A DNA stretch of 64,000 bases from Longimicrobiales bacterium (lineage in GTDB: Bacteria; Gemmatimonadota; Gemmatimonadetes; Longimicrobiales; RSA9), in assembly GCA_036381195.1 (NCBI GenBank), contig DASVDH010000062.1:5622-69621 (forward strand). The letters run 5' to 3'. The number at the start of each line of letters is the position of its first letter. Position 1 is the stretch's first letter. The position numbers and the translations under genes are program-made. The notes beneath the pieces were generated by a model. The model was not told the origin of the DNA. It saw nothing but the letters and a program-made list of their open reading frames with translations, and did no database searches. Below, one piece after another: positions 12,586 through 16,702 of this stretch.

Positions 12586-13623
12586 CTATGGGCCGCGGGC
12601 GCCCCCTTCAGCACCCGTGCAGCCGCACGACCGGCGCACGACCACCGTCGCCGGCAACGTCTCGCGCTGGCGCGGCCGGGGCCGCGGTCCCGCCCCCGGG
12701 ACCAGCGCATCCACCAGCATCCCGACCGCCCGCGCGCCCAGTTCCCGGATCGCCACGTGCGCCGTGGTGAGCGGGGGGATCGTGTACCGCGTCGATGACA
12801 CGTCGTCGAAGCCAGCCAGGGCCATCTCCTCCGGAACCGCGATGCCGGCGTCTCGCAGCGCGCTCAGCGCGCCGAATGCCATCGCGTCGTTCGCCGCGAA
12901 GATCGCCGTCGGCCGCGGGTCCATCCGCAGCACGGCCTCCGCACCCCGGTAGCCCGACTCGCCCGTGAAGTCGCCCGGGATCTCCAGCTCCTGGCGCCAC
13001 GGGACACCGGCCGCCGCGAGCGCGGTACGGTAGCCGCGCAAGCGCTCCTCCGCGTCGTGGTTCCGCTCCGGCCCCTTCAGGATCGCCACCCGCTCGTGCC
13101 CGTGGGACAGCAGGTGCTCCACCACCTGGCGCGCCCCCCCGTGGTTGTCCACGGTGAGCGCGTCGAAGGCGCCGTCCGCGAGCGGCGAGCTCAGCAGCAC
13201 CACCGGCACGTTGCGCGGCAGCATCGGCTTCAGCACGCCGGCTTCCACCATGGGCGCCATCACGACGAGGCCGTCCACCCGGCCACGCATCCCCCGCAGC
13301 GCCGCCTCGATCTCGCTCGCCGCATCGTGCGAGCTCGAGACGAGCAGATGATAGCCTCCCGCCTGCGCCGCGCCGTCGATGCCGCGGATGAGCTCGGAGA
13401 AGAACTCGCCGAACAGGTCCGGCAACAGCACGCCCAGCATCCCCGTCCGCCGGCTGATCAGACTCCGCGCCGCGCTGTTCGGCGCGTAGTTCAGCTCCCG
13501 CGCCGCCTGCTCGATGCGTCGGCGCGTTTCCTCCCGCACCGGCCCGCTCCGGTTCAATGCACGGGACACCGTCGCCACGGACACTCCGGCCCGCCGGGCC
13601 ACATCCCAGATGGTCACGGTCAT
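12586..13623 (-). CDS. LacI-family transcriptional regulator
   Basis: N-terminal HTH TIWDVARRAGVSVATVSRALN, hinge YAPNSAARSL and periplasmic-binding-like domain (ANDAMA, GFDD, PPLTT). Confidence 0.95.
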   Translation of the reverse strand: MTVTIWDVARRAGVSVATVSRALNRSGPVREETRRRIEQAARELNYAPNSAARSLISRRTGMLGVLLPDLFGEFFSELIRGIDGAAQAGGYHLLVSSSHDAASEIEAALRGMRGRVDGLVVMAPMVEAGVLKPMLPRNVPVVLLSSPLADGAFDALTVDNHGGARQVVEHLLSHGHERVAILKGPERNHDAEERLRGYRTALAAAGVPWRQELEIPGDFTGESGYRGAEAVLRMDPRPTAIFAANDAMAFGALSALRDAGIAVPEEMALAGFDDVSSTRYTIPPLTTAHVAIRELGARAVGMLVDALVPGAGPRPRPRQRETLPATVVVRRSCGCTGAEGGARGP

Positions 13624-13789
13624 CGGCGGCACGGGCTGAGGTGCCGGCGGGACCGCGCCGCGACCGGACGCACGCGCGCACAACCGCCCGGCCGGCGGCC
13701 CGGCGAACGGGCCGGCCGGCCCACCGGAAGCGCTCTGGCTGAACGGCGGGCCATGCCCATACACACACAGGAGCGGCGATCGGACGGAT

Positions 13790-13838
13790 TGGAAACGTTT
13801 ACGGGCACACTGTAATCGTTTCCACTCCCGCCTGTCAA
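13790..13838 (-). promoter_or_regulatory. sigma70 promoter (TTGACA-N18-TACAGT) with two overlapping LacI-type operators
   Basis: Plus-strand TGGAAACGTTTACG (13790-13803) and TGTAATCGTTTCCA (13811-13824) match the LacI-family TGxAAxCGxTTxCA pattern. -35 lies at 13833-13838 and -10 at 13809-13814 on the minus strand. Confidence 0.75.
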
Positions 13839-13839
13839 G

Positions 13840-13864
13840 AGACCTCACGGCAGACCTCACGGCA
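13840..13864. repeat. Perfect 12-bp tandem duplication AGACCTCACGGC
   Basis: Copies at 13840-13851 and 13852-13863, immediately upstream of the lacI -35 box. Confidence 0.8.
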
Positions 13865-14253
13865 ACCCGCCGTGCCACCGGCGCAGCCCGGCGGACCTCG
13901 CCCGGGCGCGGGCGTACGCTGGACCCGTTTCGCGTAAGTCATTGTGCGCCTTGATGAAGCACATTTCTTGCGTCTATCCGCCGCGCTCCCCAGGACACAC
14001 CGCTTCGCTCCGCAGGACCGGCCGCCCCAGGGCGGCGCAGCCACAGGCCGATCCGCGACGCGGCGGCCACGCACCGCCCCCGGCGCGCACGGGCACCCCG
14101 CCGGCCCTTTGCGGGAAACGGAGTCGTCGAGAGGACGTCGAGCGTGAGGAGGCGCCCGGACTTCGCAACGACCAGAGCGAACGCAGGACCCGCGTCTCAC
14201 CCTCGGGCCCCGACAGGCCCGCGGCCGTTTCAGAAGTCAGCCTGGTGAATCCG

Positions 14254-15243
14254 ATGCAGGAAGAGTTGGTCACGCAATCCACCCGTTATGTCCGCTGGCT
14301 ATTTCGGCGGTTTCGGACCCATGTGTTCGTCCCCGACGACCTCGCCGAGGACATCCTCGCCGAGGGCTACCTGGGGCTCGTCGCCGCCGCCCGCCGCTAC
14401 GACCCCGGCCGGGGCTCGTTCTTCGCCTTCGCGAAGAAGTTCGTCTGGGGCCATATGCTGGATGGCCTGTGCCGCTTCAACGACATCCCTGCCGAGGTGC
14501 TCCGCCGCCACCTCCGGATCCGGACGCAGCGCGAGAAGCTGCATGCCTCGCTCGGCCGGGAGCCGACGATCCGCGAGCTCGCCAACGCCGTGGGCTGCAG
14601 GGAGAGCACGCTCCGGCGCACGCTGTTCTGGGTCGAGGCGCGGACGTTCGTCTCGGCGGACGAGCCCGTTCGCCACGATGCGGACGACGCCGTCACGCTG
14701 GGCGAGATGCTGCCGGACCCGGCCGATCCCGAGGGGACGCTGGACCGGTCGCAGGCGCTGCAGCTCGTCCTTGGCGCCTGCGATCCCGTGCAGCGCTTCG
14801 TGCTGGTCAAGCACTACCTCGAGGATCGCGACCTGGCGCGGTTGACCGGCCCGACGGGGCAGACGGTGACCGAGCTGCAACGTCTGCTGGACACGACCCT
14901 CACCGGGCTACGCAAGCGCTTCGGCACGCCGGCGCCGGCCCGGAAGCTCGACCGGCTGCCGGGCTCCTTCCCGCGCGAGCGTTTCTGGCGGAACGTGCGC
15001 AAGACCGACGGTTGCTGGATCTGGACGGGCACGGTGACGCGGCAGGGCTACGGTCAGTTCTCGGAGAAGCGTGGCGGGCGTTGGGTCCATCATCTGGCGC
15101 ACCGGGCGAGCTGGCTCCTGCAGCATGACGGGATCGGGCCGGGCCGCGCCGTCGTGCAGACGTGCGGCAACCGGCTGTGCGTGCGGCCGGAGCACCTGAT
15201 GACCAGGGCCAAGCGGAAGGCGAAGCGCATGCAGGTAGCGTGA
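14254..15243 (+). CDS. FliA/WhiG-like sigma-70 factor fused to a C-terminal degenerate HNH (His-Me/HNH_3-type) domain
   Basis: Region 2 EDILAEGYLGLVAAARRYDPGRGSFFAFA, region 3 LGREPTIRELANAVG, and a divergent region 4. The C-terminus RFWRNVRKTDGCWIWTG..GYG..AHRASW..VVQTCGNRLCVRPEHL matches phage HNH_3 endonucleases. Start taken as ATG 14254 (GTG 14245 is possible). Confidence 0.85.
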   Translation: MQEELVTQSTRYVRWLFRRFRTHVFVPDDLAEDILAEGYLGLVAAARRYDPGRGSFFAFAKKFVWGHMLDGLCRFNDIPAEVLRRHLRIRTQREKLHASLGREPTIRELANAVGCRESTLRRTLFWVEARTFVSADEPVRHDADDAVTLGEMLPDPADPEGTLDRSQALQLVLGACDPVQRFVLVKHYLEDRDLARLTGPTGQTVTELQRLLDTTLTGLRKRFGTPAPARKLDRLPGSFPRERFWRNVRKTDGCWIWTGTVTRQGYGQFSEKRGGRWVHHLAHRASWLLQHDGIGPGRAVVQTCGNRLCVRPEHLMTRAKRKAKRMQVA

Positions 15244-15367
15244 CGGTGCGCGCGGGTTGCGCCCGCCGCGACCACCCTGGACTCCTACCTCCAGCTCCGG
15301 GTCAGGGACGTCCGCGGCACGGCTGGCCGGCCCCCCCCGGCGCCAGCCATGCGTCGCCTCCGCACGG

Positions 15368-15485
15368 GAGCCGGCCACGCGCGTCCCGCCGGCTCGCGGC
15401 GCGTCCAATCGGGAGTCCCTGCCCCCGCTGGCCGAGCATCGAGCCGGCCAGCGTGCCGCCGGCTCCCGACACGTCCAATCAGGAG
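15368..15485 (+). repeat. Two-copy non-coding motif: hairpin GAGCCGGC...GCCGGCTC + N6 + CGTCCAATC(G/A)GGAG
   Basis: Copy 1 at 15368-15415 and copy 2 at 15441-15485 have identical stem arms, identical spacing and an identical CGTCCAATC core. Confidence 0.75.
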
Positions 15486-15533
15486 CCCGCGAACCGGGCC
15501 CCGACCCCCACCGGGCGAGCGAGGGGGCGAGCA

Positions 15534-15563
15534 TTGACACCGGGCGCCCCCGAGTTCCATTCT
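15534..15563 (+). promoter_or_regulatory. Putative sigma70 promoter TTGACA-N18-CATTCT
   Basis: Perfect -35 in a GC-rich background, about 105 bp upstream of ATG 15668. Confidence 0.55.
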
Positions 15564-15667
15564 GTTGACGACATTCGCCGACAGAAGCACCCGCTTTGAC
15601 CGCGGCGTCCGTCCGGCACGGTGCGTCTGGTGCGGGACGGGAAGCCGCCCGCCGTCGGAGGTCGCAG

Positions 15668-16702
15668 ATGCGGTCCCTTCCTGCCGCCTCGCGAGCCTCG
15701 GTTCGACCGGCGTGGGTCGCCGGCGTCGCCGCACTGGGCCTCGTCCTGGGCTGCGGAGAGTCTCGCGACCCGCTCGCGGCCGCCGGGGCGCGGATCGAGC
15801 TGCGGCTCGAGGGGGTGCCGCCGCTCGAGGCCGACCAGGGCCGCTACGCCGTGTGGTTGCTGGATGGCAGGGGCGCACCGCACCACGCGGGCGACCTCGC
15901 CCTCGGCGCAGACGGCCGCGGCGAAGTCGTGAGCCCCATCGGCGGCGTCCGCGCCATCGAGATCACGATCGAGCCGCCCGGCGATTCCGAGCCCGGCCCA
16001 TCGCCCCTGCGCCTGCTGCGCGGGCGGTTCCGCGGCGAGGTCGCGGAGCTCGAGATCGTCGACGCGGTGACCGCCGGCGGACAGCGGCTGCACGAGCAGC
16101 CCGGTCAATTCACGATGTTCACCCCCAGCGACAACTTCGAGAACGGCTACCCGTCCCACGAGGAGTCCGGGATCTGGTTGTTCAACGTGCGGCCGCGGGA
16201 GACGCCGCAGAACGACCACTGGGTCCGGCTCACGCCGCTGCGGGAGGGGTGGGTCTACGAGGGCTGGATGGTCCGCGATTACGGCCAGCCCGGCGAGATC
16301 TGGCTCTCTTACGGCAAGTTCCTGCCGGACCGCTTCGGCGCCGTCAGCAGCCGCGACGACACCGGCTGGGGCGCGTTCTCGGGTGTGGTCGACTTCCGCA
16401 CCGCCGGGCTCGAGGAGTTCCCCGGCGACGATTGGATCTCGAACCCGCTCGGGCTCCCCTTCCCGTCCGAGCTGTCCCTCCCGCTGAACCTGCGGGAGAA
16501 GACGGCGACGGGAGAGGACCGCTGGACGCACGTGATCACGGTCGAGCCCGCGACCGACCAGGGCGAGCCGATCGGCAGCGAGCGGCCGTTCTTCATCCGC
16601 CCCTACCGCGACCCGTTCGGGCAGGCCGGACCCGGCATGCCGCGCACGATCACGTTCAATCCAGAAGGGGTGCCGCGCGGCACCGCCCGCGTCCTGCCAT
16701 GA
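15668..16702 (+). CDS. Lipoprotein with two RskA-C-like ('anti-sigma factor'-annotated) beta domains
   Basis: RBS GGAGG and lipobox LVLGC. Repeats VPPLEADQGRYAVWL...IEITIEPPGDSEP and LTPLREGWVYEGWMV...VITVEP resemble the RskA C-terminal domain pattern. Confidence 0.65.
   Translation: MRSLPAASRASVRPAWVAGVAALGLVLGCGESRDPLAAAGARIELRLEGVPPLEADQGRYAVWLLDGRGAPHHAGDLALGADGRGEVVSPIGGVRAIEITIEPPGDSEPGPSPLRLLRGRFRGEVAELEIVDAVTAGGQRLHEQPGQFTMFTPSDNFENGYPSHEESGIWLFNVRPRETPQNDHWVRLTPLREGWVYEGWMVRDYGQPGEIWLSYGKFLPDRFGAVSSRDDTGWGAFSGVVDFRTAGLEEFPGDDWISNPLGLPFPSELSLPLNLREKTATGEDRWTHVITVEPATDQGEPIGSERPFFIRPYRDPFGQAGPGMPRTITFNPEGVPRGTARVLP

Follow-up and report, generated by a model that had tools for sequence, protein, structure and literature searches.

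The locus raises the question of whether an open reading frame that joins a sigma factor to a homing-endonuclease-like domain encodes a genuine protein and, if so, which of its two halves would find the promoter. It lies in a window of 64,000 nucleotides of Longimicrobiales DNA (the window being the whole stretch that was analysed; positions are counted from its first letter). A single open frame of 329 codons was identified at 14254–15243 on the plus strand, and when its product, P0001, was analysed, the frame, the sigma-model matches and the HNH matches all agreed with the initial annotation of one ORF carrying FliA/WhiG-like sigma regions 2–4 followed by an HNH_3 domain. Amino acids 2–222 align to models of group 3 sigma factors, best to SigB/F/G (E 1e-18) and then to FliA/WhiG (E 1e-16), all of these matches lying under the curated cut-offs; for FliA/WhiG (TIGR02479) P0001 reaches 61 bits against a cut-off of 189.6 and so falls outside that family as curated. 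The NCBIfam SigBFG model spans aa 2–222, and sigma2, sigma3 and sigma4 occur without a region 1.1, as in group 3. In the Pfam scan of P0001, Sigma70_r2 is above the cut-off (E 6e-8), Sigma70_r3 slightly below it (E 2e-5) and r4 undetected. In a Foldseek search with the full-length model, the matches to sigma chains had E-values of 4e-9 to 4e-6, and the best solved-structure match of the sigma part is FliA (E 1e-13). Amino acids 231–322 match HNH families in PHROG (E 5e-22), and a linker of 11 residues separates sigma4 from this finger. The features are as follows:

13930..13998, plus strand: conserved non-coding block, TAAGTCATT ... TCTTGC ... CCCCAG, aligned in 8 loci, about 260–320 nt before the ATG
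14254..15243, plus strand: whole gene P0001, group-3-type sigma factor with a catalytically degenerate HNH_3/His-Me finger, 329 aa
14254..14481, plus strand: sigma domain 2, aa 1–76 (Pfam Sigma70_r2, FliA alignment, complex model, dN/dS 0.28)
14482..14733, plus strand: sigma domain 3 and region 3.2 linker, aa 77–160 (Pfam Sigma70_r3; dN/dS 0.25 and 0.49)
14734..14919, plus strand: sigma domain 4 with degenerate recognition helix, aa 161–222 (E207 where ordinary sigma factors have Arg)
14953..15198, plus strand: His-Me finger, judged dead, aa 234–315 (Zn ligands kept, Q302, no metal-binding Asn)
15031..15105, plus strand: beta-hairpin, predicted major-groove reader, aa 260–284 (near-invariant in the family, hypervariable in free HNH_3)
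15199..15240, plus strand: basic tail of low conservation where the catalytic alpha-helix would lie (no helix, pLDDT 47, dN/dS 0.80)

Both short sequences singled out by the initial annotation, the helix GQTVTELQR in region 4.2 and the basic tail RAKRKAKR (followed by MQVA), are present in P0001.

A fusion of this kind could be a product of misassembly or of a lost stop codon, and it could be unique. None of these doubts stands: among the 32 matches found in 5.8 billion proteins, 6 are fused homologues of full length with 55–92% identity, the frames are intact in the genomes G001, G002 and G007, and one contig of run X1 covers the whole stretch with 0 differences (X1 is possibly the source of the same DNA). 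The family consists of 41 distinct sequences, i.e. all distinct stored sequences that carry the family hairpin (3 of them fragments), falling into six full-length 90% clusters (subfamily A, Longimicrobiales) and three more distant ones (subfamily B). Among 73 genomes of the taxonomic family the finger was found in four (G000, G001, G002 and G007), always within the fused gene, and metagenome contigs revealed 9 further loci, 7 of them full-length. Within the genus the locus is syntenic with variable flanks and in G007 it is located at a different site. The fusion is a conserved family and not an artefact.

Other explanations for the gene itself were tried and set aside. A phage or plasmid gene was rejected in view of the synteny seen in the genus and because no full-length copy was found in IMG/VR, in GenBank phages (query P0037) or in plasmids (query P0204), and a degenerate FliA orthologue was rejected since G001, G002 and G007 harbour separate FliA and flagellin genes. 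None of rpoB/rpoC, fliA and flagellin could be detected in G000, which is 89% complete; the rpoC domains likewise went undetected in G001 and G002, and in G007 they are interrupted by contig ends. All of this probably reflects assembly gaps. Longer fused forms were not seen among 14 candidates of 577–2000 aa, which is weak evidence, and ESM Atlas matches all stayed under 0.9. A contig from an RNA run covers 14899–15244 with 20 differences and could be DNA, while RNA run X20 has a small word share, which is no evidence of expression.

To follow the state of the finger, the residues described for catalysis in His-Me endonucleases (PMC5714182, PMC3384342) were compared between free and fused domains. 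The initial annotation had proposed that the putative Zn ligands are kept, that the general-base His is replaced by Gln and that the metal-binding Asn following the HL motif is missing, and P0001 bears this out: C254, C304, C309 and H314 are present and invariant in the fused domains, residue 302 is Gln (CAG, 15157–15159) and no Asn follows HL. In an alignment of 62 free HNH_3 domains and 8 fused ones, all 62 free domains have both His at 302 and the Asn, the latter 9 residues after the His of HL where P0001 has its basic tail, and the fused rows show 7 Gln, 1 His and 0 Asn. The 62 come from 71 locus domains passing E 1e-12, the 9 left out being mostly near-duplicates, and as the free set was chosen by a query-derived pattern, columns 251–258 are conserved by construction. 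Across the 41 family sequences residue 302 is Gln in 36 and His in 5 and the metal-binding Asn is found in 0/41, so no homologue keeps the full catalytic pair. The proposed loss of the His therefore holds for 36 sequences but not for one 90% cluster (P0005), which has His at 302 and lacks the Asn. The five sequences of this cluster sit among Gln sequences of both subfamilies, with weakly supported forks, and since the codons differ by one base a Gln-to-His reversion is the simplest reading.

In terms of what active endonucleases possess, the finger has the fold and the Zn ligands and lacks the general-base His and the metal-binding Asn/His on the core alpha-helix. A first AlphaFold model, built with 7 sequences, left the finger unfolded; the domain model (pLDDT 88) contains the hairpin and no helix after HL. 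When this fold was searched against 48,161 chains, the best matches were I-HmuI (Z 7.5, rmsd 4.4, 85 aligned), I-PpoI (6.3, 7.2, 90), Smad4-MH1 (5.6, 3.0, 76) and NFIC (4.8, 5.6, 89), all four His-Me relatives, and the next match reached only Z 2.0. These scores are modest: no Z reaches 8, and the Foldseek E-values exceed 0.001. With 14 K/R versus 5 D/E the finger is strongly basic and, judged from its residues and its model, is catalytically dead.

Similar domains are common elsewhere. In the other 146 proteins (P0036–P0182 set) among the best 150 matches of the profile search described below, 315 HNH_3 repeats were recognised by pattern, 84 of which lack both His and Asn, and Gln is the commonest substitute for the His (48/90). 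Tandem arrays of 2–5 HNH_3 repeats are common, often with dead repeats followed by one intact, and the integrase-type proteins P0014, P0018, P0022, P0023 and P0026 start with a Gln-type dead HNH_3 (Phage_integrase confirmed for P0022), perhaps as an extra DNA-binding module. The HNH tree groups most Gln-type dead domains with the fusions (support 83), though with few columns and weak forks. Since dead Gln-type HNH_3 domains are common as accessory modules in multi-HNH proteins and integrases, the finger was probably dead already at capture, and the sigma factor probably captured a domain that already served as a non-cutting module. The earlier proposal of a domesticated homing-endonuclease domain thus stands with regard to the sequence tests but is refined in that the loss of catalysis probably preceded the capture. 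A separate protein of the kind, P0034 (L024:8716–9792, minus strand, contig C65 of G032, Longimicrobium sp.), combines a sigma4-like HTH (Pfam E 0.001), a Gln-type dead HNH_3 and a Cys/His-rich segment and is an independent HTH and dead HNH protein.

The dN/dS analysis proposed in the initial annotation was performed by the Nei-Gojobori method on 5 lineages (5 of 13 stored CDS) with a gene-wide dS of 0.59, the high GC3 probably inflating all the ratios. It revealed the strongest constraint on the hairpin, with the lowest ratio in the protein (0.08, CI 0.01–0.19), and a relaxed region 4.2 (0.61, 0.45–0.81; both halves of region 4 at 0.61), the two intervals being without overlap. The whole finger reached 0.22 (0.14–0.31), sigma2 0.28, sigma3 0.25, the region 3.2 linker 0.49, the linker between sigma4 and the finger 0.85 and the tail 0.80. 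Ten hairpin residues do not vary among the fusions (T262, R263, Q264, Q268, S270, E271, R273, R276, H279, H280), and in the same ten columns of the free domains no residue reaches 30%, gaps aside. According to a figure legend (PMC3384342, Fig. 3), a small beta-sheet makes the base contacts in I-HmuI and I-PpoI, and MH1 kept this surface after catalysis was lost; by the fold match, this DNA-reading sheet would correspond to the hairpin of P0001, which is predicted to be a major-groove DNA reader and, from its conservation and fold, may bind DNA sequence-specifically. As the hairpin is nearly unchanged, its DNA target is probably common to the whole family.

In the sigma half, position 207 of region 4.2 is Arg in 18/18 ordinary sigma factors and Glu or Gln in 8/8 fusions. 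The position aligns to R220 of E. coli FliA, described as a -35 phosphate contact; transcription drops when it is mutated together with the second such contact (10.1101/2020.01.02.893370). In G001, G002 and G007 region 4.2 is the most conserved part of the ordinary FliA, the true paralogues being 78–91% identical there against 31–59% for the fusions. The suggested decay of the -35 helix is borne out as regards the lost Arg and the relaxed constraint, but region 4 is relaxed and not dead: R192 and R210 are invariant in 8/8 (subfamily A) and the confidence interval of region 4 stays below 1. Region 4.2 is thus still under some constraint and may touch DNA.

The contacts that E. coli FliA makes with the -10 element are partly changed. 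R58 and R95 have basic counterparts, and R74, R84, R94 and R98 are replaced by residues that are largely fixed in the family; these changes could be a loss instead of a new specificity. In regions 2.3–2.4, K62, W65, G66, H67, C73 and E81 are invariant in subfamily A. The sigma tree places the fusions as a clade of their own on a very long branch (2.35 changes per column), sister to FliA at a support of 91/28, which is not firm.

The core-binding motif in region 2 is intact, as stated in the initial annotation, with the helix of region 2.2 kept as in the FliA group. Docking of sigma(1–224) was performed with the beta-prime clamp of G020, a genome of another genus, because rpoBC of G000 is not assembled, and gave a score of 0.76 (best control 0.00), with at least 70% of the contacts in agreement between runs and a partner pLDDT of at least 71. 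The mark set for this score is reached by 116/157 solved complexes and 2/215 mismatched pairs. In the model region 2.2 (aa 32–44) lies on the clamp helices, where it is predicted to dock. As like complexes are already solved, the score shows likeness and not binding, and the model may pass because it resembles sigma-RNAP structures that have been solved.

A profile search of 1.84 billion representatives, of which the best 150 proteins (148 new) were considered, extended the family. The sigma profile matches 2/148 of the new proteins among these best 150, a fragment of subfamily A and P0037, and a further search added P0204 and P0205. Subfamily B now includes P0037, P0183, P0184, P0204, P0205 and P0216, in three clusters of 3, 5 and 3 members, one member being labelled as a Woeseiaceae MAG; with P0037 as query no further fused copy was found in 401 genomes of the phylum. 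The two subfamilies have an N-terminal sigma2 and the finger in common (HHalign probability 100%), the identity of B to A being 67–72% in the hairpin, where TRQGYGQFS and RW-H-LAHR are kept, and 41–47% in sigma2. Subfamily B lacks about 45 residues of region 3 and 13–15 of region 4.2, aligning over only 4–9 of 54 and 17–19 of 32 positions respectively. Within one family, sigma2 and the dead finger can thus survive deletion of the normal -35 reader, which is the strongest single argument for the reading preferred below. After the finger follows, in frame, a hydrophobic stretch (hydropathy 1.8–2.6) with a lipobox-like end, LAGC, and then about 85 further residues, without any Pfam match in this extension of P0204 and P0205; the P0037 cluster ends just before the lipobox-like Cys. 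From these sequences subfamily B is possibly a membrane-tethered minimal sigma factor.

When analysing the region upstream of the gene, the conserved block at 13930–13998 appeared, which may be a putative promoter of the fusion gene. Searches with nhmmer and pattern scans gave no second significant copy in G000, and hence no regulon could be drawn. The motif TAAGT(C/G/T)ATT is found also in 3/3 genomes lacking the fusion and is therefore not fusion-specific. Inverted repeats of the form TAAGT-N-ACTTA, resembling the first part of the block, are located at C15:55523 and C2:29518 in G000, and genomes that lack the fusion have the core of these repeats as well. A sigma54-like reading of the block (AGCAC-N5-TTGC) was rejected since its first half is not conserved and a sigma32-like reading since no spacing peak was seen. 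At 14146–14152, about 100 nt upstream of the start, there is a Shine-Dalgarno-like GAGGAGG, conserved in the aligned loci with no start codon after it. The leader of about 260 nt may be regulatory; no Rfam match above chance was found in 13600–15650.

The gene is flanked by a LacI-family gene and a gene with an RskA_C domain. An inverted repeat at 13789–13838, TGGAAACGTTTAC ... GTAATCGTTTCCA, overlaps a minus-strand promoter, TTGACA-18-TACAGT, and the two likely serve the divergently transcribed gene of the LacI family (12586–13629) as operator and promoter. Directly downstream, at 15596–16702 on the plus strand, a predicted lipoprotein with RskA_C (anti-sigma-K C-terminal) above the Pfam cut-off is encoded, which is adjacent only in G000 and G001. 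A conserved anti-sigma or operon partner was for this reason rejected, and none was found beside the gene in the compared loci.

With a probability of about 0.6, we consider P0001 to be a working alternative sigma factor in which the dead finger takes the place of -35 recognition. The holoenzyme would be formed through sigma2 on the core, with sigma4 retained as a spacer or flap-binding adaptor; the hairpin of the finger would enter the major groove near or upstream of the -35 position, the finger thereby binding a fixed DNA sequence upstream of the promoter, and sigma2 with its changed -10 contacts would open a non-FliA -10 element. The initial annotation had offered replacement of -35 recognition and a sigma-like decoy side by side; selection on the hairpin, relaxation of region 4.2 and the loss of the HTH in subfamily B by deletion in region 4.2 favour, at the level of sequence, replacement. 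The search with the upstream block found no binding site or regulon of the fusion in G000. The hydrophobic lipobox-like segment of subfamily B is not explained by the replacement model. A wider account, in which a sigma factor swapped its -35 reader (decaying in subfamily A) for a dead homing-endonuclease finger and subfamily B became a minimal membrane-anchored sigma2-finger protein, possibly released by a signal, is held tentatively, at slightly less than even odds.

Replacement has to be weighed against a working sigma factor that acts on an extended -10 element and carries the dead finger as a regulatory extension instead of a promoter reader, be it autoinhibitory, ligand-, RNA- or protein-binding, or a zinc/redox switch. 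Fused C-terminal regulatory extensions are described for ECF sigma factors (ECF41, PMC3426412; OrbS, PMC9023288), the -35 contacts of FliA are reported as weak, so that region 4.2 could decay without a substitute (10.1101/2020.01.02.893370), and as no anti-sigma partner gene is conserved alongside, built-in control is plausible. However, the constraint is concentrated on the hairpin, at polar and basic positions where the free relatives are hypervariable, on a surface that is the DNA reader in I-HmuI, I-PpoI and MH1 (PMC3384342), in a finger with 14 K/R versus 5 D/E, and we regard a regulatory extension as unlikely. We give slightly less credit to a DNA-targeted repressor or decoy, in which the finger would sit on its site and sigma2 would capture the core with no productive initiation. 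The predicted core docking fits such a protein equally well, several FliA -10 contacts are changed, the sigma branch is very long (2.35 changes per column), and tight upstream binding could hinder promoter escape; yet regions 2 and 3 are under clear purifying selection (0.28, 0.25), the invariance of K62, W65, G66, H67, C73 and E81 exceeds the needs of core binding alone, and T4 gp55 is an example of a sigma2-only factor able to initiate (PMC2988020).

It is quite improbable that the finger still nicks DNA to some degree, or that a homing endonuclease once entered a sigma gene at its 3' end and left the finger behind as a neutral relic. Nicking could be suspected from the His at 302 in one cluster (5/41 sequences) and from PacI-type enzymes, reported to work without the His (PMC5714182), but the metal-binding Asn is found in 0/41, the catalytic helix is missing from the model and the cluster is most simply a one-base Gln-to-His reversion, while dN/dS values of 0.08–0.22 exclude neutrality.

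If replacement of -35 recognition is correct, the -35 reader of a sigma factor would be replaceable in cis by an unrelated DNA-binding fold, and a His-Me hairpin, itself swappable and directly linked to RNA polymerase, would decide which promoters are used. Since HNH_3 hairpins are highly diverse, fusions of this kind point to a way of obtaining orthogonal sigma factors. The family has a narrow distribution (4/73 genomes of the taxonomic family), which limits its biological reach, yet makes it a clean test system. No description of a sigma-HNH fusion was found by titles and the beginnings of abstracts, with subscription journals largely uncovered. Sigma factors are not mentioned in a classification of His-Me enzymes (PMC5714182), nor HNH in the main text of a 2026 survey of sigma domains (10.64898/2026.10.08.757525), the supplements of which could list such architectures.

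Compared with known systems, P0001 resembles FliA/WhiG and SigB/F/G (TIGR02479, TIGR02980; E. coli sigma28, PDB 6PMI) in its ordered regions 2-3-4 without region 1.1. It differs from FliA/WhiG in the changed ESRVSQ helix, several -10 contacts and the extra C-terminal His-Me finger, and from FliA in being located outside a flagellar locus, with a separate intact FliA in G001, G002 and G007. With HNH_3 homing endonucleases (PF13392, PF05551; I-HmuI, I-PpoI) it shares the fold, the Zn ligands, the AHR motif, the loop Asn306 and the beta-hairpin; unlike these it lacks the general-base His (36/41) and the metal Asn and helix (all), and is a fixed chromosomal gene under purifying selection, joined to a sigma factor. 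Smad MH1 and NFI likewise reuse a dead His-Me fold for sequence-specific binding in transcription (PMC5714182, PMC3384342), but they are eukaryotic, of independent origin and outside sigma factors; the fusion would be a bacterial case of the passage from His-Me enzyme to transcription factor, with intermediates still visible. WhiA, a dead LAGLIDADG domain with an HTH, also arose by domestication of a homing endonuclease into a bacterial transcription factor and is reported to interact with WhiG, but has another nuclease fold and is a separate protein; its nuclease domain may have ceded DNA binding to the HTH, which is a warning for the dead finger (PMC3384342).

In T4 gp55/gp33 a sigma2-only factor has its sigma4 function supplied otherwise (PMC2988020), a parallel to subfamily B, but there the upstream anchor is a sliding clamp while the candidate anchor of the fusion is a sequence-specific domain. 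The closest working analogy is dCas12f-sigmaE, in which a nuclease-dead DNA binder takes over from -35 recognition, sigma4 is turned into an adaptor and sigma2 still binds the core (PMC13472631, PMC12259091); a rare sigmaE clade is also described that adjoins inactive restriction-enzyme-like genes, unfused (PMC13472631). P0001 does not belong to that system, which is defined by an adjacent dCas12f gene, a guide RNA and an ECF sigma factor with its CTD, as its neighbours are the LacI and RskA_C genes, no Rfam match was seen and region 3 is present. dCas12f-sigmaE consists of two proteins, is RNA-guided and uses an ECF sigma factor and a RuvC fold, whereas the fusion would be a single protein-guided chain with a group 3 sigma factor and a His-Me fold, and would, if replacement is correct, extend the same principle to a compact protein-only design.
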